A program made the translations under genes and the position numbers. Positions 1,827-48,105 of a stretch of 56,181 bases of DNA are shown here, piece by piece. The DNA comes from a virus (Duplodnaviria; Heunggongvirae; Uroviricota; Caudoviricetes), in IMG/VR virus record IMGVR_UViG_2565956618_000007, one strand, 5' to 3'. Each line of letters begins with the position of its first letter. The stretch's first letter is position 1. The notes beneath the pieces are model-generated. The model saw nothing but the letters and a program-made list of their open reading frames with translations. It did not search any database and had not been told where the DNA came from.

Positions 1827-4334
1827 TTAAGAATCAGCCTGACTCGGGATCAGTTTTTGCCAGATAACTGAAACGTATTTTGCCTGGTAACGGGCGTCAT
1901 CAAGTGCATTATGGCGCTCACCTTCGAATGGAATAGCCGTTCTGGCATCGAAGTCTATGGCTTTCCCCAGCTCAACGATTGTGCGTACATCGCGATCGTT
2001 GTAGTAACGCCACGGGCAGGGGATCCCCTGCCGTTCGTATGAACGGCGCAAAATCGTGTTGTCGAAGTTGGCTCCATTTCCCCAAACCTGAACAAAAAAT
2101 TCACCGGAGTTTTCGTCGATAAATTCCCGCAATTGTAACAGTGCATCATCTAACGGGATTTCATCGGTCATAATGGCAGATTGCGCTTCGCGTGATTGCT
2201 TAAGCCACCATTTAATGGTGTCCCGATCAATGACTCCGCCAGCAGTTTCCAGATCGATAGTCTTACTAAATTCCGGTCCCATATCTCCGGTTTGCGGATC
2301 GAAAAATATTGCACCTATTGAGATGATCGGGGCATCAGGATTTTTTCCCATGGTTTCAAGGTCGATCATTAGATGGTCACACGCCCTGCTGGTGGATGTG
2401 ATTTCGTGATGACCGTTCACCTTAATTGGGTGATCTGCCGTCTCGCCAGTTTCATTATCGCTATTGTGATGCTGATTGCCGCCAGTGTTCTCCTTGTGTG
2501 GATGTTCAGCGCCTTGCATTTCCTCCGGATCATCTTCCTGAACTTCAACCTGATACTCTTCATCGAATGTTTCCTGGTATGTTGCGTCGCCCATCACCGC
2601 GCCACAATCAGGGCAGTTGCCGCCGCCGGTCTGACCGCAGGCGGTGCAGACTTTTTCCACTTCCTGTTGCGCTACTGGTTCAGGCTGTTTCGTTACTGGC
2701 TCGTTTTGTAACGCATTTGGACTGTTTTGTTCCGCTTTTTGGTAGTTCCGTTCCGATTCATGCTGGTTCTGGTTCACAGAATCGCGGGTCTGGATCCCCT
2801 TAACCCATTTCGGATCATTCGGGTCACTAATCCCTTCAACAAATTCACCACGTGATGCAGCAAGCAACTTATCAGCGTCAGGCTGGCTGATATTGGCTGC
2901 CTGCATAATTTTGTTTACTTCGTCAGCGGTAACTTTTATCGGCTCTGGTTGTTCTGAATCTTCAGCGGTATCTACATTTTGCGGTAAGCCCGTGTATGTG
3001 CCATTTTTTCGGGCAAAATATTCTTCTTTTGTGATTTCAGTGGCGCCAGCAGCCAGTGCCTTATCCAGACCAGAAAGTTTGTTTGCGCGACCGTATTTTT
3101 CTCCGTCCTTATCTGCGAAGAGGAAATAGAACGGCCCCTCACGCTCTACAGATGGTTCAGCTTCCGGCGCGGTTTCATTTTTTGGGATATCAGATACCTC
3201 AGTTTCCACTGCATCAGTTTGTGTTTCTGATGACTGGAGAACATCAACAGTGCCCAGGTCTGTTTCTTCATTCTCAAACACGCCCTTTGTCGTCAGGTAT
3301 TCGCAGATATATTTGTTCAGTGCTACGGGATCTTTGTGAATGTCGATCGGACGCTCACGGACAAGGCCAAAAATAGTCTGGCGGTCGTAGCGAAGGGCAT
3401 CAGGCTGTTTGCGCATTGATGCCGAGATACGCTTCCAGTCTTCGCGGTCGTTGTCGATAACTTCTTTTTTTGCCCAGCGATGGATGCTGCCGTCAATGTT
3501 TCCGGCATCCACATCACCAGGCCAGAGAGCGTAGGCCAGTTCGTCATCCAGTGTTTTCCATGTCTGCTTGTATTCGCGATGAATGGCAGCAATGACCGGG
3601 CTGATTTTTCCTGTTGAATTTTCAGTGTACTGTTGATTGGCTCTGGCGCGGGCGAGATCAACAACAGACGTGTATTTTCCGGTTTCCTTGCGTTCACCTT
3701 CGCGACGTTTTTTCCAGATGCGCATCTCTGCCTGAATTTCGGGCCATTTAGCACCAGGAATACATTTATGCTTAACCCACCCAATGGCGTGCAACTTAAG
3801 CTCCGGATACATGGCGTTAACTTCTGGCATTTTCATCAACGCTTCAACGATATGTCCGTCGAATGTTGCCATGTCTTCCTGCAACAATTCCTGTGCGCTA
3901 ATAACCATATCAACGGTGATGTTTTCACATGTGTCGAACTTAACCATGACAGCGTTCTGTACTTCAGGGGCCAGCTTGTCAAAAGTGACGTTCATCGGAT
4001 CGGATTCAGTCTCAACCGGGACAAAAGAAGCAGACTCCTCATCCCAGCGGTTTTCCTGCATATATTCAGCATCCCATGAATCGAGGGCAGGGCGGGGTAT
4101 GCCAGGTTTATCCTCGCAGACAATAAATTTATAAGCGCAGTCCTGAGCAGCCGGATAATGTTCCAGGAATTGCCAGTGAAATTTTGCTCGAGCACGGCGT
4201 TCGTCGCCAGCTTCAATGGCTGTGGCTACAGCCACAGCGCCTTCTTCCCTTGTTGCCAGTTCGTCAGGAATAGCGGCGCAAATAAAGACTTTACTCATTT
4301 GTTTTAACCTCATGACAGATTTAAGGATGAACAA
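1827..4334 (-). CDS. RecE-like (exonuclease VIII family) protein with C-terminal DnaQ/DEDDh-type 3'-5' exonuclease domain
   Basis: 835-aa ORF; internal segment KLLAASRGEFVEGISDPNDPKWVKGIQTRD matches remembered RecE sequence; C-terminus carries D-x-E (MIDLETMG), FD and H-x4-D (HNALDDA) motifs typical of DEDDh exonucleases. No recT-like gene adjacent. Confidence 0.8.
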   Translation of the reverse strand: MFILKSVMRLKQMSKVFICAAIPDELATREEGAVAVATAIEAGDERRARAKFHWQFLEHYPAAQDCAYKFIVCEDKPGIPRPALDSWDAEYMQENRWDEESASFVPVETESDPMNVTFDKLAPEVQNAVMVKFDTCENITVDMVISAQELLQEDMATFDGHIVEALMKMPEVNAMYPELKLHAIGWVKHKCIPGAKWPEIQAEMRIWKKRREGERKETGKYTSVVDLARARANQQYTENSTGKISPVIAAIHREYKQTWKTLDDELAYALWPGDVDAGNIDGSIHRWAKKEVIDNDREDWKRISASMRKQPDALRYDRQTIFGLVRERPIDIHKDPVALNKYICEYLTTKGVFENEETDLGTVDVLQSSETQTDAVETEVSDIPKNETAPEAEPSVEREGPFYFLFADKDGEKYGRANKLSGLDKALAAGATEITKEEYFARKNGTYTGLPQNVDTAEDSEQPEPIKVTADEVNKIMQAANISQPDADKLLAASRGEFVEGISDPNDPKWVKGIQTRDSVNQNQHESERNYQKAEQNSPNALQNEPVTKQPEPVAQQEVEKVCTACGQTGGGNCPDCGAVMGDATYQETFDEEYQVEVQEDDPEEMQGAEHPHKENTGGNQHHNSDNETGETADHPIKVNGHHEITSTSRACDHLMIDLETMGKNPDAPIISIGAIFFDPQTGDMGPEFSKTIDLETAGGVIDRDTIKWWLKQSREAQSAIMTDEIPLDDALLQLREFIDENSGEFFVQVWGNGANFDNTILRRSYERQGIPCPWRYYNDRDVRTIVELGKAIDFDARTAIPFEGERHNALDDARYQAKYVSVIWQKLIPSQADS

Positions 4335-4582: not shown

Positions 4583-4767
4583 TGTGCACATCCTTTTGGC
4601 ATCAGACGTAAACGAGCCAGCATTGAAACAATGCATATTTTATTTAATAGCTCCCGTTCTTGTTTTCTCTTGTTAATGGCATCTTCAGTAAATACTGGGT
4701 TACTGATAGTGACACCAATTTCAAAACAACCTTCAGACGTATTAACGTTTGGTAATAACGTTTTCAT
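4579..4767 (-). CDS. dicB: DicB-like cell-division inhibitor
   Basis: 62-aa product from internal Met (MKTLLPNVNTSEGCFEIG…); lies immediately downstream of the DicF sRNA, as in the dicB operon. Confidence 0.6.
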   Translation of the reverse strand: MKTLLPNVNTSEGCFEIGVTISNPVFTEDAINKRKQERELLNKICIVSMLARLRLMPKGCAQ

Positions 4768-4935
4768 TATCGCGTCCTCAACAATGAATTTTGTGATGCA
4801 GTGCCTGGTGCCTCCAGGTGACGTTAACCAGTTAACAATTAACGCCGGATACAGAGAATCCACCCATAACACTGTTTTTGGTTTTAACTGTTCCGCGTGC
4901 GCTCAGCCGCATTCACCACATCACAAAATTCACTT

Positions 4936-20480: not shown

Positions 20481-21020
20481 ATGGAGTTGCTTATGTCAAA
20501 TGTGAGCGGGATCGGTGATGCTTATTACTGGAGTGTTTTTAAAATCGCCGAGGCCTTTGGGCTTCACCGGGACACAGTAAAAAAACGGCTCCTCGCGGCC
20601 AACACTCCTGTGGCTGCGACTGTCAGGGGGAACCCCGTTTACGCCCTGCAGCATGTCGGGCCCGCCCTGTTTAGTGTGAAGCATGAGGCAGCAGACTCTG
20701 TTCATGATCCATCCCGTATGGAGCCGAAAGAGAGAAAAGACTGGTACCAGTCTGAAAATGAAAGGATCAAGCTGGAAAAGGAGCAGCGAAAACTCATCCC
20801 AGTTGATGAAGTAGTCATCGTCTATTCGTCCATGAGAAAGGCTGTCGTCCAGGTTCTGGAGACAATTCCGGATGTTCTTGAACGCGATTGCGCCCTGACT
20901 CCTCAGGCCGTCGGCGTTGTACAGCAGGCCATTGATGACCTGCGATACACTCTTCAGGAAAAATCCTACGAGGCTTGTGCTGCTGAATTAATTCCTGATG
21001 AGGAAGGAGAGAGTCTCTAG
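20481..21020 (+). CDS. nohA: Terminase small subunit (Nu1/NohA-like)
   Basis: 179-aa product with N-terminal HTH-like segment and acidic C-terminus; immediately upstream of a large-terminase N-terminal fragment. Confidence 0.75.
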   Translation: MELLMSNVSGIGDAYYWSVFKIAEAFGLHRDTVKKRLLAANTPVAATVRGNPVYALQHVGPALFSVKHEAADSVHDPSRMEPKERKDWYQSENERIKLEKEQRKLIPVDEVVIVYSSMRKAVVQVLETIPDVLERDCALTPQAVGVVQQAIDDLRYTLQEKSYEACAAELIPDEEGESL

Positions 21021-21028
21021 GAGGAATA

Positions 21029-21352
21029 ATGGGTTTTTCATCAGCCCGAAATTTGGGAAGGGACATATCGGCAGGATTTTCCCCACCACGTCGCATGCCG
21101 ATTTCGGAGGCTGTTAAAAAATTCATGCGTGTTCCCAAGGGGGCTGGTAACTCGGTGCCATGGGATCCTGAACTGACACCCTACATCATTGAGCCCATGA
21201 ACTGCCTGGCATCGCGTGAATACGATGCGGTGATTTTTGTTGGTCCTGCGCGAACAGGGAAGACCATTGGTCTGATCGATGGATGGATTGTCTATACCAT
21301 CGTTTGCGATCCTTCGGACATGCTCGTTGTGCAGATGACCGAAGATAAGTGA
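21029..21352 (+). pseudogene. Terminase large subunit (GpA-like), N-terminal 107-codon fragment; truncated
   Basis: RBS AGGAGGAATA then ATG; the product ends after …VQMTEDK at the point where Mu-like prophage DNA appears to begin; intact GpA-type terminases exceed 600 aa. Confidence 0.65.
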
Positions 21353-21359
21353 TCAGACA

Positions 21360-21392
21360 TGAGATAAATGAAGGGGGATCCGTGAGATAAAT
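21360..21392. repeat. Direct 10-bp repeats TGAGATAAAT x2 (23-bp spacing) at the prophage end: candidate transposase-binding end repeats
   Basis: Read directly just after the terminase truncation; Mu-type ends carry repeated transposase-binding sites a few bp from the terminus; identity unverified. Confidence 0.3.
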
Positions 21393-21545
21393 AACGAATT
21401 GGAGTGGGTTAACATGGGTTCTGGTGAACAGAACTGAAATTCTTTTCCGCTATACGATAGATAAGTCGGGCATTGAAATCATCCTTCCTGGCAACTTAGA
21501 ATCGAGTTTGCTGAAACATGACCCGCAACAAAAAGGATGATTCCA

Positions 21546-21707
21546 ATGACTACTCAAAACAATAAGCATGATAGCCTGGATTACTCAGAAAAGCCCAAAA
21601 GCAAGCACATCGTGACGTTCGAGCGCGATTCCGGTAGAAAAGGAGAATCGTCTTCCTCTGCCAATAAAACCACTATGCCGGCAGCCCCTGCCCCAGGGAA
21701 AAAATAA
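21546..21707 (+). CDS. Small hydrophilic hypothetical protein
   Basis: 53-aa ORF (below ORF-track cutoff) with RBS AAAAGGA 8 nt upstream; convergent with the membrane-protein gene. Confidence 0.3.
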   Translation: MTTQNNKHDSLDYSEKPKSKHIVTFERDSGRKGESSSSANKTTMPAAPAPGKK

Positions 21708-21710
21708 ACA

Positions 21711-22343
21711 TCATTCATCGTTCGTTGCACGAACGCGCCTGATCTCCACTCTGGCAATCTGATCTGCTGGAATATAGGTTGCCAGAGCTCCCCAGTACTT
21801 ATCAACCACGCCTTTATACTCTTCCCATTCGTTACTGCCTGAAGGGCTGCTGTGCGTGACGTAAAGAACCATATCGCCTTTATTCCCCAGGGTAAACGGA
21901 CCGTTAGGCCACTCTTCAAAGTTCCCTGGCAGCCGTGACATCATACCGGAACCATCGCGAAGAATCACTCTGACCTCGGTAACGCTGAAGCCTGTTTGAT
22001 CAAACATTGCCTGCCATGCTGAGCTGGTATCGTCAGACCATGAAACATCATTATTCCACAGTAATCTGTACATCCATTTGCGACCGTACCTGCGCCACCA
22101 CGCACCGCATGTAACGGCACACAGAAGTGCTGGTGGTGTTGCCAGCCAGGCATTCAGACCTGCCCACATAACAGCCTGGTAAGCCATCATTGCTGTCAGG
22201 CCAAAAATCAGCGAAGAAAAAGTCACCTCAATGGGCTTGTGGTGATCCTTCAGTCCCACATTCGCAATAAAATACCCAATATAGCCACTGGTCAGGGTCA
22301 CCAGTGTTGCCCATGGCAGATTTAACAACGAAACGTCAAACAT
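21711..22343 (-). CDS. Membrane protein with three N-terminal TM helices and a soluble C-terminal domain; candidate moron (superinfection exclusion?)
   Basis: 210-aa product from MFDVSLLNLPWATLVTLTSGYIGYF… with RBS AGGGAGA; separated from Mor by an intrinsic terminator; last gene before the prophage end. Confidence 0.7.
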   Translation of the reverse strand: MFDVSLLNLPWATLVTLTSGYIGYFIANVGLKDHHKPIEVTFSSLIFGLTAMMAYQAVMWAGLNAWLATPPALLCAVTCGAWWRRYGRKWMYRLLWNNDVSWSDDTSSAWQAMFDQTGFSVTEVRVILRDGSGMMSRLPGNFEEWPNGPFTLGNKGDMVLYVTHSSPSGSNEWEEYKGVVDKYWGALATYIPADQIARVEIRRVRATNDE

Positions 22344-22381
22344 ATTTTCTCCCTGCATCCTGAATACTAAAGAGAGAGCAT

Positions 22382-22411
22382 AAAAAAAGCACGGTAAGGG
22401 GTCTACCGTGC
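22382..22411 (-). terminator. Intrinsic terminator downstream of mor (minus strand)
   Basis: Stem GCACGGTA/TACCGTGC with 7-nt loop, followed on the minus strand by a run of seven U. Confidence 0.6.
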
Positions 22412-22457
22412 TTTTATACAATAAGGAGATTTTTGAAAGGACTTTAACAAGCAGGAA

Positions 22458-22856
22458 TTATCTGGATTTGTTAACGTCTTTCGTCTCCTCTGGCAGATCT
22501 TCATCAAACAACCTGCCCTGCATCCGATCCAGTTCTTCTTTTCTGACCCGCTTAACCACGCTGTAGACCCACTGAAGCGAAACACCAAACTTGCGGGCCA
22601 GTTCGTGGTGGTTGCGTCCGTTAAACTCCCTGAAGATTTCCCGGTCGCGCTGACTGACCTTCCATACCATGCCCATCGGGAAATAAACGTTTTGCCCGCC
22701 CCAGACCTGCATCATTCGGTTCGCGACGGCCTGACCAATCTGGTCGGCAATTGCGGGCTCAATATCAATAATCTCGCGAACGGTCTCAGAGGTATGCTGT
22801 GCCAGCTCCACCAGGAGTTCCGGCCCTTTACTTCGAAACTGATTCAGGTCGCTCAT
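22458..22856 (-). CDS. mor: Mor-family middle transcription activator
   Basis: 132-aa product; C-terminal …WGGQNVYFPMGMVWKVSQRDREIFREFNGRNHHELARKFGVSLQWVYSVVKRVR aligns with remembered Mu Mor. Confidence 0.85.
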   Translation of the reverse strand: MSDLNQFRSKGPELLVELAQHTSETVREIIDIEPAIADQIGQAVANRMMQVWGGQNVYFPMGMVWKVSQRDREIFREFNGRNHHELARKFGVSLQWVYSVVKRVRKEELDRMQGRLFDEDLPEETKDVNKSR

Positions 22857-23277
22857 GTTTTACTCCCGCAGCTCTGTGCTGCCACTTCTTCAGTTTCTCA
22901 ATAACACTGCTTGCCTGTTCAGTATTGAGCCAGCGCAGGGCGCTGATGCCCGTTTCCCGCTTGATCCACCGCGCTAATGCATTTTCTGAACGGTCACGAA
23001 CAATGCCGGCAGCAGCCATTTCAAGCCATAGCGCACGAATTTTCCTGGACTGCGGATGGTTATCCAGCGGTAAACCGGAGCTGGCTTTTCTGGCTGGTTT
23101 AACGCGAAAGCCTTTCTTTTTCATGGATTCCAGCACGCAGTTTAGTTGTGTGGTATCCATTCCTTTGGTTGAGGCTTTACCGGTCAGCCCCTGTAACATC
23201 TGGCGGTAGGTGTCTTCATCCATACCCAGTTCATTACGGGCAATATGGATAAGCTGTATCAGGCGTTTTTTCTGCAT
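22828..23277 (-). CDS. GemA-like (Mu gp16 family) protein
   Basis: 149-aa ORF overlapping mor by 29 nt; position and size as Mu gemA; assignment tentative. Confidence 0.55.
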   Translation of the reverse strand: MQKKRLIQLIHIARNELGMDEDTYRQMLQGLTGKASTKGMDTTQLNCVLESMKKKGFRVKPARKASSGLPLDNHPQSRKIRALWLEMAAAGIVRDRSENALARWIKRETGISALRWLNTEQASSVIEKLKKWQHRAAGVKHERPESVSK

Positions 23278-23278
23278 A

Positions 23279-23485
23279 TCATCTCCTTTTTTTCAGTCTG
23301 TCGGCAACAATGTCGGTTGCAGCTGGCAGGGTGACTGGCCAGAACAACATGACGGCGGTCATGTACAGGATGTAATGCGCGGTGTCGTAGTGCCTGCCAT
23401 AGCCCAGGGAACGATGAAGTCTTGCGCTGCATGATCCTGCGTACATATACCAGAAAAGAAAACAGACAATGGTTTCAGTAGTCAT
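23279..23485 (-). CDS. Small membrane protein
   Basis: 68-aa product from internal Met (MTTETIVCFLFWYMYAGS…) with two hydrophobic segments. Confidence 0.45.
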   Translation of the reverse strand: MTTETIVCFLFWYMYAGSCSARLHRSLGYGRHYDTAHYILYMTAVMLFWPVTLPAATDIVADRLKKRR

Positions 23486-26308: not shown

Positions 26309-27475
26309 TTAAACCCCTTTGACAACGTCAGCGTTGACCTGTGGAACCCCGATTTCAGCGGCCAGATTCATGGCGGCTATTACCAGGTTACTGACGGCCA
26401 GCGGATACAGCAGGCTGACCATATTTTTACGATGACTTCCCGGATTGCTCAGGCGGGCACGTATGGCATCCACTGCGCTGGCGTCCATAATGTCCGTCAG
26501 TTGTTTACCGGCCCGTTGCAGTTTGAACGTCAGAAACTCTTCAAGGTTATTGTCCAGAGGCAGAAGTTCGACCACCTCACAGCGCTGAACGACTTCACGG
26601 ACTTCCATATTGCGTTCAGACAGTTTTGTCGCCAGTTCCGGCTGGCCAATCAGCACGATGGACAGCAGTTTTTTGAAACCGGACTCCAGCTCAAAAAAGC
26701 GTTTGAGGTGTTTCAGTGTCGGAATGGGCAGACTGTGGGCCTCCTCAATCACCAGAACGTGGCTGAACCCCGCCTGGCTGCTGTCTTTCAGGACGCGATG
26801 CAACTGGCGAAAGCGGGCGTCCTGACTGCGTCTGATGCTTTCCAGTGGTGCGATGGTACTGATAATGGCTTCGGCAATCGCTGCTGCCTTCAGGGTTTTC
26901 CCTTTCACATCGTTGTCTTCCATAGCGATGATGTATGGCTCGATAACAATTACCGGCGCATTCTCGCGGTTGATACGTTCAGTCAGGTCGCGGCGCAGCG
27001 TGGATTTACCCGCACCGGACTCACCGATGACGGCCATAAACCCACCATGACGGGCTGTCTGGTACAACGCCTCACGCACGTAGCGAATATCCGGGGTGGT
27101 GAACACATCATCAGAACCCTGCATGGCTTCGTCGGCGAACGGGTCACGGAAAAGACCAAACGCTTTTTTGGTTGCTGGAAATAACACCTGTTTTTTGAGT
27201 AACATATTCTCTTCCTCACTGAGGCTCGTTTTATCTGTGGTACCCGCTGTACGGGGCGTGGCCGCGCCCTGTACAGCATCAAAACTCTTCGTTGTATCAA
27301 TCCCCTGACTTTCCAGCCAGGACGCAAGACGCCGGCGCACTTCTCCGGGGCTGGTGCGGGGCCACGCGTTATGATTCACAATCTGGGCCAGCGTGGCCTC
27401 AGAAACATCGACAGCTCTCGCCACCACCGCCTGTGGAATACGGGCCTCTTTCAGTTGCTGCTTCAGTACCAGCAT
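26309..27475 (-). CDS. Mu B-like transposition ATPase (AAA+)
   Basis: Start at MLVLKQQLK with RBS GAGGAGGG; N-terminal HTH, Walker A VIGESGAGKST, Walker B-like VLVIEEAH; directly downstream of the transposase. Confidence 0.85.
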   Translation of the reverse strand: MLVLKQQLKEARIPQAVVARAVDVSEATLAQIVNHNAWPRTSPGEVRRRLASWLESQGIDTTKSFDAVQGAATPRTAGTTDKTSLSEEENMLLKKQVLFPATKKAFGLFRDPFADEAMQGSDDVFTTPDIRYVREALYQTARHGGFMAVIGESGAGKSTLRRDLTERINRENAPVIVIEPYIIAMEDNDVKGKTLKAAAIAEAIISTIAPLESIRRSQDARFRQLHRVLKDSSQAGFSHVLVIEEAHSLPIPTLKHLKRFFELESGFKKLLSIVLIGQPELATKLSERNMEVREVVQRCEVVELLPLDNNLEEFLTFKLQRAGKQLTDIMDASAVDAIRARLSNPGSHRKNMVSLLYPLAVSNLVIAAMNLAAEIGVPQVNADVVKGV

Positions 27476-27485
27476 GTTTCCCTCC

Positions 27486-29255
27486 TCAGTTGCCGTTAAC
27501 AATGCTGATAACACTGCTGCTGGCCGGTGTGGTCAGCGTGGCCATGACTTCATCCAGTGCGGCTTCCGGTACGCCGTCCGGGTACTGTGCCGTTAACTGG
27601 CGGTAATGTTCCGGCGTCCAGGTAAGGCCGTCGGCGCTGAACTTATCGCGCAGGGCTTTCGCGGCCTCCACATGAGTCATGGGACGTTGTTCAGTGCGCG
27701 GCCCGCGTACGTCAGAGGCCTGACCACGCTTCGGCATATAGGCCGGAAGTGTGGTGTCGTCGATATGTTTATACGGGTCAAGCCGCCCGCCGAACGGCAG
27801 CGCCTTCGCCTTGCGTGCGGCGGCTGCATCTGCGGCGTTGTCTGTACCGGTAACCAGCGCTTCAGTTTCTTTTGCCGCCATCTGTGCCGGGGTTTCCGGC
27901 AGGGCTTTGTAACTTTCGCCAAATACCGCCGCGCCTTCAGCAAAGCCAAACTCGTTCTTTCTGACCTCTTCGACCAGGAAGAACGTCTCGTGGCCGTCCT
28001 CACCGGTCAGAACCACCTGTGCCACATCGCTGCGCCATGGGTTACGGGTAATCATCAGTTTTTCACCAACCAGTACGCCCGGTACCGTTGATACGTCAAA
28101 TTCAGTGCCCCGGAACGAGACACGAAGTTTTGGCGTGACTTTGCGGAGTTCTGGTGCCGCCACAGCCAGTTCACGACATACCTCAACGGAAGGCGCTTTT
28201 TTCAGCTGCTCAGCAGTAATCTTCAGCCAGATATCCGTGCGGGTTTTACCGTGGCGGCTGTGAACAGCCGTGGCGTTAAAGTGGCTGCGCCATTTCGCGG
28301 CCAGCGCGTTGAGTTCTTCCAGACTGTGAACCGGCCGGAACTTCAGACCCGGCTCCAGCTTGCGTTCGATAATGTCCCGCGCCTTTTCCACCTGTCCGGT
28401 GGCGCGGGCGTTATGCGGCTTGTGCGCTATCAGGTCAATGCCCAGTGAGCGGCACATGTTTTTCGTCATACCCGCGGTGTTTGCCGAGCCGGGGTCGAGA
28501 TAGAGTATTTTTGGCACGCCGTGCAGCACGTCTGCGCCGCCACGCTCCTGCATGGCGTTGATAAGCACAGAACACAGGTTCTCACCGGATTCCGCACCCG
28601 TCACATACTCAACGTAAATCCAGCCGCTGGCATGGTCGGTAATCTCATAACTCCACACGCGGTCACTGGCGATACGGGCAAGGTTAGCGGGCTTGTTCTT
28701 GTAGAATTTCGCGCTGTCCATCACCTGCAGCCCTTTGTGTCCATTGCTCAGGTAGTAAAGCGTGCAGAGCGAGGCATCAATCTGCCAGACGTGATTGGGA
28801 TGCAGACTGGCCACTTCGGTATGCGGCGCAGGGGCATCCAGTTGTTCCGGGTGCAGGCCATAGTTACGCAGGGCACGGCTGATGGCATCTTCGGACAACG
28901 GGAAAAACTCACCGGTGGTTTCATCTGTTCTGCCTGCGGAGATAAAGCCGTTAGCCCGCAGGGTTTCCACTGCATCTGCGATGGAATAGAGACGCTTACC
29001 GTTCTTGCGGGTGGCCTCACGCAGTGTGGCAGATATCAGCGCGGCTTCGTCGCGGGTCAGGGCGCTGCGCCCGGCATCGGCGCGTTTTTTGCGTTTATCA
29101 GTCACAGAGACCTCCTTCAGCCTGCGCAGCAGAGTGGCGCGGGACATGCCAAGTTCAGCACAGGCAGCGTCGTATATTGCACCGCGTTTACCATGCCCCG
29201 CGTCACGTGCCGCGCGGGCGACATAAACCAGTCGTTCAGTCAGGGCAGCATTCAT
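27486..29255 (-). CDS. Mu A-like DDE transposase
   Basis: 589-aa product with N-terminal DNA-binding region and rve-type core (…HVWQIDAS…LYLDPGSAN… and a downstream E). Confidence 0.9.
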   Translation of the reverse strand: MNAALTERLVYVARAARDAGHGKRGAIYDAACAELGMSRATLLRRLKEVSVTDKRKKRADAGRSALTRDEAALISATLREATRKNGKRLYSIADAVETLRANGFISAGRTDETTGEFFPLSEDAISRALRNYGLHPEQLDAPAPHTEVASLHPNHVWQIDASLCTLYYLSNGHKGLQVMDSAKFYKNKPANLARIASDRVWSYEITDHASGWIYVEYVTGAESGENLCSVLINAMQERGGADVLHGVPKILYLDPGSANTAGMTKNMCRSLGIDLIAHKPHNARATGQVEKARDIIERKLEPGLKFRPVHSLEELNALAAKWRSHFNATAVHSRHGKTRTDIWLKITAEQLKKAPSVEVCRELAVAAPELRKVTPKLRVSFRGTEFDVSTVPGVLVGEKLMITRNPWRSDVAQVVLTGEDGHETFFLVEEVRKNEFGFAEGAAVFGESYKALPETPAQMAAKETEALVTGTDNAADAAAARKAKALPFGGRLDPYKHIDDTTLPAYMPKRGQASDVRGPRTEQRPMTHVEAAKALRDKFSADGLTWTPEHYRQLTAQYPDGVPEAALDEVMATLTTPASSSVISIVNGN

Positions 29256-34252: not shown

Positions 34253-34499
34253 AATCTGTAAGCCTTTTACAATTATAAAAAATATGGCAGGCTAGTCTGG
34301 TCTCGCGAGACTGACTGAACCTTGGTCGGCTCACAGCGCATTCCTGTGGGGCGATGGCCAGCCCGGTGTTCGGGTACCGGGCTGGTCGTTCTTTCAAAGC
34401 CATCATGCAGTGCACGTTTACATCTTCACTATTAACGCTGTTTAAAATCCGTATCCCGCCACATTTGTGATGCTGTCTCCACCAAACGAGGAGACACAC

Positions 34500-34850
34500 A
34501 TGAAAAACCTGAAAAAATTCATTCCCCCTGTTAAAAAACCTCGCCTCAGCGGCTGGCTGCTGACCTCAGTGCTGTTGCTGGGCATCATCGCTCTGGTCTC
34601 GCCACAGCAGTTGCCTGTTGTGATCTACAAGCTGGCACTCATCACGCTGGCAGCAGTGCTGGGGTACTGGCTTGACCGTTCGCTCTTCCCCAAAGCCCGT
34701 CCCGGTCAGTACCTGAAACATGAAGACAGGCTGATGGCTGAAGGGCGTTTCCCTGTGCAGACCGGCCTTCACCTTGTATTTTCTGCTGCGTTAATCCGCC
34801 GTGCACTGATTGTTGCAGCTGTCTGTCTGGCTGTTGCGATGGGGCTTTAA
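34500..34850 (+). CDS. Holin-like membrane protein (three TM segments), first gene of lysis cassette
   Basis: 116-aa product from MKNLKKFIPP with RBS GAGGAG; three hydrophobic helices; immediately upstream of the transglycosylase. Confidence 0.6.
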   Translation: MKNLKKFIPPVKKPRLSGWLLTSVLLLGIIALVSPQQLPVVIYKLALITLAAVLGYWLDRSLFPKARPGQYLKHEDRLMAEGRFPVQTGLHLVFSAALIRRALIVAAVCLAVAMGL

Positions 34851-34852
34851 TC

Positions 34853-35593
34853 ATGAACTGGCCGCAGATCACCTGGATTGTATGCATGTCCCTGAAACTG
34901 GCTTTCGAAGCCTTTCGGGTCTTCATCAGAACCGAACGCCTGTCAGTCCGCGCCGGGACCTTTCTGGTTCATATGGCATGGGTATTCTTTGTCGCAATGT
35001 TGCTCTGGTGTGGCGGCTTTTTCAGCCAGGCATGCGCAGCGCAGCCTCCGCAGGTTGCGCTGCAGTATCGCGATGATGTGATCCGTAATGCCCGGCTTGA
35101 ATGGGGACTGTCTGCGCCGGTGGCCGACTTCGCCGCGCAGCTGCATCAGGAAAGCGGCTGGCGACCTGATGCGGTCTCGCCGGCTGGCGCTCAGGGACTG
35201 GCGCAGTTTATGCCCACCACCGCTGACTGGATAAGTCAGCTGATGCCGGGGCTTAACAGCCGTGAACCGTTTAATCCGGCGTGGGCCATCCGGGCGCTGG
35301 TCAGCTATGACCGCTGGCTGTGGCAACGCGTCAGCGCCGCCAGTGACTGCGAGCGTATGGCCATGACGCTGTCAGGCTATAACGGTGGTCTGGGCTGGGT
35401 ACAGCGGGACAAACGGCTGGCCTCGCAGCAGGGGCTGGACAGCACCCGCTGGTTCGGACATGTCGCCACGGTGAATGCCGGACGCAATGCGGCCAGCTGG
35501 CGGGAGAACCGCCATTATCCGCAGCGCATCCTGCGCGAACTGGCACCGCGATATCTCACATGGGGAGGCAGCAGTTGTGTGGCATCTGGTTAA
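34853..35593 (+). CDS. Endolysin, lytic transglycosylase (SLT domain); possible N-terminal signal/SAR segment
   Basis: SLT motif …ESGWRPDAVSPAGAQGLAQFMP…; internal Met MAWVFFVAMLLWCGGFFSQACA↓AQ resembles a signal peptide, so the true start may be 34973. Confidence 0.8.
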   Translation: MNWPQITWIVCMSLKLAFEAFRVFIRTERLSVRAGTFLVHMAWVFFVAMLLWCGGFFSQACAAQPPQVALQYRDDVIRNARLEWGLSAPVADFAAQLHQESGWRPDAVSPAGAQGLAQFMPTTADWISQLMPGLNSREPFNPAWAIRALVSYDRWLWQRVSAASDCERMAMTLSGYNGGLGWVQRDKRLASQQGLDSTRWFGHVATVNAGRNAASWRENRHYPQRILRELAPRYLTWGGSSCVASG

Positions 35594-47515: not shown

Positions 47516-47612
47516 CATCACAGGGGCTCCGGCCCCTTCTTCTTAATCTCCTTTAATATCCGTCACGCGCTTCTCCCGACATACTGCCCTGAACTTACAC
47601 AGGAGCACAATC

Positions 47613-47948
47613 ATGTCACAGACCCCATCCGATACTTTTAAATTGTCTTATCCCTTCACCACTGCTGCAGGTACCAGAATTGAGCTGGTTGAACTGAAAC
47701 GCCTGACGGTAAAAGACCTGAAGCAGGTGCGCAAAATCAGCAAAAACCCGGCAGACTGGGACGAACCGCTGATTGCCCGCAGTACTGGTCTTCTCCCGGA
47801 AGATCTCGACAATATGGATCTGGCTGATTACCTGCAGTTACAGAAACGATTTCAGCTCATCACGGGGATGGGTGAGAGCAACCAGGGCGCTGACGCAGGC
47901 GCAGGGGCTGCTGGCGAGATGGTTCCGGTTTCAGCCGGGGGAGATTGA
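47613..47948 (+). CDS. Tail assembly chaperone (zero-frame product)
   Basis: 111-aa acidic ORF with RBS CAGGAG, between tube and tape measure. Confidence 0.65.
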   Translation: MSQTPSDTFKLSYPFTTAAGTRIELVELKRLTVKDLKQVRKISKNPADWDEPLIARSTGLLPEDLDNMDLADYLQLQKRFQLITGMGESNQGADAGAGAAGEMVPVSAGGD

Positions 47949-48030: not shown

Positions 48031-48105
48031 TACAGACAGCCGCCAGTAGCGGCTGTTCTGCGTTATCCCCTCACGTCTTTTCACCTTCCCCGGAGGTTAA
48101 CCACT

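Follow-up and report, generated by a model that had tools for sequence, protein, structure and literature searches.

Phage morons are optional genes in otherwise conserved temperate-phage genomes, and they often serve exclusion or defence. Prophages also carry convergent type I toxin-antitoxin loci with overlapping 3' ends, as exemplified by txpA/RatA and bsrG/SR4 in B. subtilis. Among membrane proteins, the CBASS defence effector Cap15 joins a transmembrane (TM) region to a beta-barrel and the membrane channel MscS has an Sm-like beta domain; Sm-like folds typically form rings. The locus described here recalls each of these systems in part. It lies in a stretch of viral DNA of 56,181 nucleotides (nt), IMG/VR record IMGVR_UViG_2565956618_000007, hereafter the window, and occupies about 1 kb (21470-22457) at the left extremity of a transposable prophage of the BcepMu type, in which the early arm points leftward. 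This cassette consists of two convergent genes, one encoding a membrane protein of 210 amino acids (aa) and the other a small protein of 53 aa. That it has this anatomy and is an optional accessory unit, a moron, of its prophage is assigned a probability of about 0.9, while the further reading that it is a conflict or defence module, acting by superinfection exclusion or abortive infection with an effector-regulator logic, is more tentative, with a probability of about 0.4. The features on which the argument rests are the following.

21350-21392: left end of the prophage, starting with TGATCAGAC, followed by the direct repeats (A/G)TGAGATAAAT at 21359-21369 and 21382-21392
21473-21502, plus strand: sigma-70 promoter of the small open reading frame (ORF), TTGAAA, 18-nt spacer, TAGAAT, matching the consensus at 10/12 positions and directed inward from the prophage end
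21533-21537, plus strand: Shine-Dalgarno site AAGGA of the small ORF
21546-21707, plus strand: convergent small ORF of 53 aa, matching PHROG 15726; its product begins MTTQNNKHDSLDYSEKPKSK and ends PAAPAPGKK
21711-22343, minus strand: gene of the 210-aa membrane protein, with its ATG start at 22343 and its end at 21711
22349-22353: Shine-Dalgarno site GGGAG of the 210-aa gene
22382-22415, minus strand: intrinsic terminator separating the cassette from mor, AAAAGCACGGTA-GACCCC-TTACCGTGCTTTT then TTT
22458-22856, minus strand: mor, late transcription activator (Pfam Mor, E-value (E) 1.1e-43), the last conserved gene of the early arm, outside the cassette and given for context

An optional gene pair at a prophage end

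Among 5426 complete E. coli genomes, 640 carry the gemA-mor segment of the early arm (22458-23277), mostly at 95-99% identity, and the cassette (21460-22450) is found in 133, with a coverage of at least 80% in 118. The cassette-less majority is exemplified by strain C7, in which mor is followed by about 150 nt and then by the end TGATTAGAC...GAGATAAAT; compared with the window, its homology breaks at 21389 and resumes at 22498. Phage PhiKM shares this short end, and BcepMu itself, whose gene 1 at the far left is Mor, ends with mor; both are without the cassette. Presence in some and absence from other closely related phage genomes at the same position is the distribution of a moron, so that the accessory status proposed in an earlier note, which had been made from the letters of the window, holds in the presence/absence sense. 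Since near-identical prophages do without it, the cassette is dispensable for transposition, morphogenesis and lysis. In base composition it is not distinct (GC content 0.47-0.51 vs 0.48-0.58 in the early arm). As a side observation, the PhiKM record (L001, PQ738613.1) contains beyond its TGATTAGAC end a coding sequence annotated 'Fe2+ ABC transporter permease protein 2' (3430-3774), which most likely stems from packaging of host DNA or from a junction in the assembly rather than being a phage gene.

The 210-aa gene had been described as the last gene before the prophage end, a statement that did not survive, as the conserved convergent 53-aa ORF and its promoter (21473-21707, plus strand) lie in between; it is this overlooked ORF that clearly possesses a promoter of its own. 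The stop codons of the two genes are 3 nt apart, and a second possible ATG of the small ORF lies at 21537. Extraction of the downstream region of every fetchable 210-aa homologue revealed an equivalent convergent hydrophilic ORF of about 45-60 aa abutting the homologue's stop codon in about 23 distinct loci, with a gap of -20 to +7 nt in most of them. Represented among them are Escherichia, Klebsiella, Citrobacter, Serratia, Salmonella, Proteus, Bradyrhizobium, Afipia and Sphingomonas (Sphingomonadaceae), besides several IMG/VR viral contigs. When aligned, its products have in common an N-terminal M(T/S)x(Q/K/N)N, the motif [DE][YF][ST]E.PK[SG], which takes the form NYxPxT in alpha-proteobacteria, and a Pro-rich basic C-terminus (e.g., PPAPLxxK, PPPSPKKK, APAPGKK), with PxxPx0-3[K/R] within the last 12 residues in 16 of the 23 proteins. 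Their grand average of hydropathy ranges from -1.0 to -2.0, and the 53-aa protein of the window is hydrophilic and probably disordered.

In the conserved motif segment of 12 enterobacterial variants, substitutions at codon positions 1, 2 and 3 amount to 315, 222 and 536, respectively. An AAGGA-type Shine-Dalgarno site is kept in nearly all of these 12 variants, and the promoter, cATTGAAAcCATCCTTC...ACTAGAATC, is kept in nine out of ten diverged enterobacterial variants, about 36 nt 5' of the small-ORF ATG. The codon-position pattern, the conserved Shine-Dalgarno site and the promoter together argue that the small ORF is a translated gene with its own promoter, and the functional unit would be the convergent gene pair. 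Both products match a PHROG family over their full length, namely PHROG 12870 for the 210-aa protein (E 7.6e-134 across 1-210 of 210) and PHROG 15726 for the 53-aa protein (E 1.2e-41 across 1-53 of 53), and both families are annotated 'unknown function'. A homology search with the 53-aa protein returned close relatives only, all named 'hypothetical protein'.

Several unrelated types of temperate phage, and mobile islands as well, carry the two genes together at accessory positions. A profile search with the 210-aa protein yielded 523 cluster representatives (50% identity) at E of at most 1e-3, those among the matches listed having about 200-215 aa. In Enterobacterales the protein is always encoded 98-750 nt downstream of a Mor homologue, with 32-100% identity to the Mor of the window (Escherichia, Klebsiella, Citrobacter, Serratia, Salmonella, Proteus). 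More distant copies, at 37-59% identity, occupy other accessory positions: in a P2-like element behind ogr and ahead of the Ead/gpA genes (L056), in the gap between head-tail connector and tail genes (L060), behind a Mu-F-like head gene (L065), near capsid and gpA-type terminase genes (L061) and directly before a tail-tip gene (L063, L064). Diverged copies are spread over Enterobacterales and alpha-proteobacteria, with P2-like and siphovirus-like prophages among their carriers, and at least four architectures of temperate phages are represented. On alpha-proteobacterial chromosomes, the pair lies beside insertion-sequence-type or Mu-type transposases (L017, L021), and in Afipia its neighbours are a serine resolvase, an Abi_alpha protein and the PADLOC candidates PDC-S47 and PDC-S67 (L016). 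This distribution is the one expected of mobile cargo.

Two observations on these relatives stand apart. The alpha-proteobacterial loci have a third conserved ORF, of 156-174 aa and with a product ending ...FD(P/L)IF(T/S)FP..., on the same strand upstream of the small ORF, as seen in the Afipia metagenome-assembled genome (L016, 5263-9338) and in Bradyrhizobium (L004/L020, 8802-9272); the Afipia module has the serine resolvase on one side and the candidates Abi_alpha, PDC-S47 and PDC-S67 on the other, which gives it the look of a defence island. The Synechococcus phage Ssp-JY41 (L003, PP438431.1), a 20-kb cyanophage record, encodes at 1-744 a 29%-identical homologue of the 210-aa protein with 94% of it covered, as the terminal gene where the record ends.

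For the 210-aa protein, Kyte-Doolittle hydropathy places hydrophobic segments at about residues 8-30, 40-63 and 65-83, and an AlphaFold2 model made with 24 homologues (mean predicted local distance difference test score 79.5) contains three helices (11-28, 37-60, 65-97) and a shorter one (104-113), followed by a beta-rich domain (119-205); both bear out the three N-terminal TM helices and the separate C-terminal domain noticed at first reading. The third hydrophobic segment is followed by RRYGRK, which by the positive-inside rule places the C-terminal half in the cytoplasm. The product is therefore modelled as an inner-membrane protein with its N-terminus out, and is predicted to have three conserved TM helices and a cytoplasmic Sm/SH3-like beta-barrel. 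The C-terminal domain superposes on Sm proteins (Sm/LSm, SH3-like barrel); a Foldseek comparison with the PDB likewise put an LSm protein at the top, though not significantly. Residues invariant in the family comprise GY..Y in the first TM helix, H35 in the first cytoplasmic loop and the linker SWSD..SAW, as well as NLPW at the periplasmic N-terminus and GD...YVTH, G185 and R202 in the barrel; since invariant residues also lie in the TM part, this part is more than an anchor. Against viral models Foldseek retrieved one uncharacterised 197-aa protein (E 1.3e-4) and a weak, TM-only resemblance to holins (E 0.02-0.5), and a sequence search of PDB chains returned only noise (E > 0.6). A role as holin or in lysis was considered and rejected, as the prophage has its own holin and endolysin on the other arm and the Foldseek holin match is weak. 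The longer TTG-start ORF reaching 22421 in the mechanical ORF list was likewise discarded as an artefact that crosses the terminator.

As to families, relatives at 54-57% identity score 22.5-28.5 bits against DUF6338 (PF19865; cut-off 26.5) at profile positions of about 54-144, and the window protein stays below the gathering threshold of 26.5 bits. Members of DUF6338, catalogued as integral membrane proteins of unknown function, resemble the 210-aa protein in having about 205 aa and an N-terminal TM region, but only part of the profile aligns, and this for the relatives and not for the window protein. Literature on the function of DUF6338 was not found, and membership would explain nothing. 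The earlier proposal would have suffered from homologues with an established role in Mu-like morphogenesis or lysis; no such role was found, and the labels that they carry are PHROG 12870 and a borderline DUF6338. A search of NCBIfam gave nothing meaningful for the cassette proteins.

The closest phage records to the prophage are classified as Bcepmuvirus. A PHROG scan assigned to its minus strand a transposase (27486-29255), a transposition ATPase (26309-27514), Gam, GemA and a Ner-like regulator, and to its plus strand a repressor, a holin (34467-34850), an endolysin (34853-35593) and a terminase. The segment 21345/21351-22500 is found at 99.7-100% identity in more than 100 complete E. coli genomes, where it adjoins different host genes, including yecR, tnaB, rstB, fadM, mdfA, irp1, flgA and clbG, which shows that the prophage end is real and that the phage transposes. 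The end sequence and its direct repeats, which are probably transposase-binding sites, are conserved across ten diverged prophages and in the cassette-less strain C7. In the window, lambdoid terminase large-subunit homology ends at 21349.

The flank of the prophage end also deserves mention. The lambdoid terminase large-subunit gene (21029-21349, plus strand) is 100% identical to that of phages cdtI, Tritos and HannyBb until 21349 and is truncated after about 107 codons at the junction 21349/21350. The Mu-like prophage sits inside this gene as a prophage within a prophage and should inactivate the lambdoid one. Farther in, some 70 nt from the prophage end, the hairpin GGTTCTGGTGAACAGAACT with GAAATTCTTTT behind it (21417-21445, plus strand) is kept in several diverged BcepMu-like prophages and could terminate read-in host transcription or form part of an inner transposase-binding site.

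Terminator and transcription of the cassette

The early-operon transcript meets a strong intrinsic terminator directly before the 210-aa gene. Its core stem, GCACGGTA/TACCGTGC, is lengthened by A-U pairs and followed by seven T, so that the 8-bp stem plus seven U first described is an accurate account of the GC-containing core. The RNA folds with -19.1 kcal/mol (z -6.46), and none of 200 shuffled sequences folds as well. At least four unrelated stems (GCACGGTA, GCGCAATGG, CACAGTGG, GGGCAGA) are found at the same place, 35-57 nt 5' of the 210-aa ATG. Being a stable GC-containing hairpin with a U-tract behind it, and conserved as a structure, the element qualifies as a Rho-independent terminator. 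In three further loci (L012, L015, L043) a weaker, mismatched hairpin precedes the 210-aa gene. In L022 and L025, mor and the cassette are separated by one more gene, of about 80 aa (4663-4905), and there the terminator comes after this extra gene, which indicates that it stays with the cassette rather than with mor. A scan of 21300-22900 against Rfam gave no match.

An alternative in which the hairpin is the Mor-binding dyad of a middle promoter like Pm of Mu, its centre about 43 nt 5' of the putative start site, was rejected, as variants with 96%-identical Mor have unrelated stems (GCACGGTA vs GCGCAATGG). Different stems beside such similar Mor proteins point to an RNA structure rather than to a protein-binding DNA site.

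Downstream of the small ORF, a terminator scan found no plus-strand terminator between 21707 and the hairpin at 22385-22415, and none lies between the two convergent genes. Without a plus-strand terminator before 22385, the small-ORF transcript should run antisense through the 210-aa gene.

Two side observations concern the wider transcription map. The scan gave no minus-strand terminator 3' of the 210-aa gene before the prophage end (21350-21711), so that its transcript, or read-through from the early operon, should exit the prophage into flanking DNA. GC-rich hairpins with T-rich tracts occur on the plus strand at 34358-34385, 47522-47537 and 48036-48056, 55-130 nt 5' of late units (the holin and the genes at 47613 and 48106), and share with the 210-aa gene the layout of a terminator followed by a gene.

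Possible function and competing explanations

If the cassette is a conflict module, the membrane protein would be the effector, which would oligomerise via its Sm-like domain and perturb the inner membrane or an injection or entry step. In the lysogen, the constitutively transcribed small gene would restrain this effector in two ways: its transcript, meeting no terminator before 22385, would run antisense through the 210-aa gene, and the 53-aa protein might bind the SH3-like barrel through its PxxPxK tail. Once the restraint is lost, or the terminator is read through during lytic growth, the effector would be released, and superinfection exclusion or abortive infection would follow. A bolder version of the conflict reading, in which the cassettes would form an undescribed cross-phylum, phage-borne conflict family, must be called distinctly unlikely. 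It would comprise an Sm-like ring-forming inner-membrane pore or entry blocker and a disordered mini-protein whose tail plugs the barrel and whose mRNA is an antisense silencer, would follow a hybrid type I/type II antitoxin logic and would hop among Mu-like, P2-like and siphovirus-like phages.

A number of findings speak against a defence role. No PADLOC-DB v2 family matches either protein at E of at most 1, Pfam has no match for either of them (none at E of at most 1 for the 210-aa protein), and literature or experimental evidence for any function of the family was not found. The LSm protein ranked first by Foldseek against the PDB reaches an E of 0.34, which speaks only faintly for the Sm fold; that the tail docks on the SH3-like barrel, or that oligomers form a pore, is pure inference. 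The association with defence islands is suggestive and concerns one or two loci only. The partner is not strictly required, given that the small ORF is absent from the P2-like copy L056 and truncated in a common 87%-identity E. coli variant (L025). To these are added the transcriptional findings that follow, on which the main rival is built.

This rival, unlikely in our judgement but the most serious one, holds that the cassette provides a lytic-cycle accessory function. The 210-aa protein would then be made by partial read-through of the terminator, which would serve as an attenuator, or through coupling of its translation to the early operon, and might exclude superinfecting phage during replication, condition the membrane or time lysis, with the small gene mainly silencing the 210-aa gene by antisense transcription in the lysogen. 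In all phage contexts the 210-aa gene is codirectional with the neighbouring lytic operon. In three variants (L051, L052, L054) the terminator is missing and the ATG of the 210-aa gene overlaps the stop codon of the upstream ORF, which implies translational coupling to an upstream early ORF; this stop lies upstream of 6001 in the three loci. The insulation from the early transcript that the earlier note had emphasised is accordingly real for this copy and for the at least four hairpin variants but does not extend to these variants. Nor did promoter prediction support the separate regulation that it had suggested for the 210-aa gene, as no minus-strand sigma-70 match of at least 9/12 occurs within 20900-23400 and the gene remains without a convincing promoter. 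Codirectionality and coupling fit expression in the lytic cycle as well as expression in the lysogen, and an antisense transcript from the small-ORF promoter would suit a silencing role. However, about 80% of closely related E. coli prophages lack the cassette, which is hence dispensable to them, the strong terminator is maintained in many variants, copies also occur in non-phage mobile islands, and the small ORF is conserved as a protein and not only as an antisense RNA.

Less likely than the lytic-cycle function, and improbable overall, is an addiction module resembling a toxin-antitoxin system, whose sole role would be to stabilise its mobile element without any phage defence, the membrane protein being the toxin and the small unstable protein and/or the antisense RNA the antidote. 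The convergent arrangement, in which 3' ends abut or overlap as they do in type I loci of the 3'-overlapping class, a small, probably disordered partner with a constitutive promoter and carriage on diverse mobile elements would all agree with this, but a chromosomally integrated transposable prophage needs little stabilisation, absence or truncation of the partner in some apparently intact copies would be intolerable with a lethal toxin, and the presumed toxin exceeds type I toxins by far in size and does not resemble them.

Very improbable, finally, is the earlier note's own version, an autonomous single-gene moron encoding a classical superinfection-exclusion protein expressed in the lysogen without a partner: the upstream terminator, the membrane topology and the optional presence agree with it, and a weak 8/12 promoter-like arrangement, T(A/G)GA(C/T)N with a 17-nt spacer and TAT(T/G)CT, which three stem families share, occupies the loop of the hairpin and the last part of the T-tract, but 41% of shuffled sequences also reach 8/12, which makes it no better than chance, the partner ORF is conserved across phyla, the insulation is not universal, and no similarity to known superinfection-exclusion or defence proteins was found in PADLOC-DB v2, Pfam or PHROG profiles. 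On the whole, the first observation is partly confirmed and its interpretation partly supported.

Some 2% of the complete E. coli genomes (118-133 of 5426) carry the cassette, among them commensal, probiotic and extraintestinal pathogenic strains; the natural lysogens E. coli M-17 and ABU 83972 have it at 100% and 99.8% identity, respectively. Neither of its proteins has annotation or literature. Should the pair prove to be an exclusion or abortive-infection module, it would add to prophage defences a new effector architecture of three TM helices and an Sm-like barrel, together with a new regulatory layout in which the convergent antisense partner is protein-coding, and phage therapy would have to reckon with it when phages are chosen against such lysogens. 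Since prophages that are 98% identical may or may not have the cassette, ready-made isogenic comparisons exist in nature.

Comparison with described systems

Compared with the morons HK97 gp15, lambda rexAB/sieB and P2 old/tin/fun, the cassette is similar in its optional presence, its position at an operon boundary at the genome end, the terminator in front and the membrane protein it encodes, and its homologues lie in accessory positions of P2-like and siphovirus-like prophages. It differs in showing no sequence or profile similarity to them, in being a convergent two-gene unit and in a base composition that does not stand out. With respect to the own promoter and terminator of a moron, it has the terminator upstream and a clear promoter, at 10/12, on the small gene only, the 210-aa gene having just the 8/12 arrangement.

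With txpA/RatA and bsrG/SR4 the cassette has in common its location in a prophage, the convergent orientation with abutting or overlapping 3' ends, one membrane-inserted product and a partner with a constitutive promoter whose transcript must run antisense. In contrast to these loci, its membrane protein has 210 aa and a folded domain and is not a peptide of under 60 aa, and its partner is a protein-coding gene under purifying selection and not a non-coding RNA. As regards the 3'-overlap class of type I toxin-antitoxin systems, it thus shares the convergent, 3'-abutting geometry and does not belong to the class.

The 210-aa protein in turn resembles Cap15 and MscS in the predicted succession of N-terminal TM helices and a small cytoplasmic beta-barrel. 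The cassette is best described as an uncharacterised prophage moron or accessory conflict cassette with an unusual conserved convergent partner gene.

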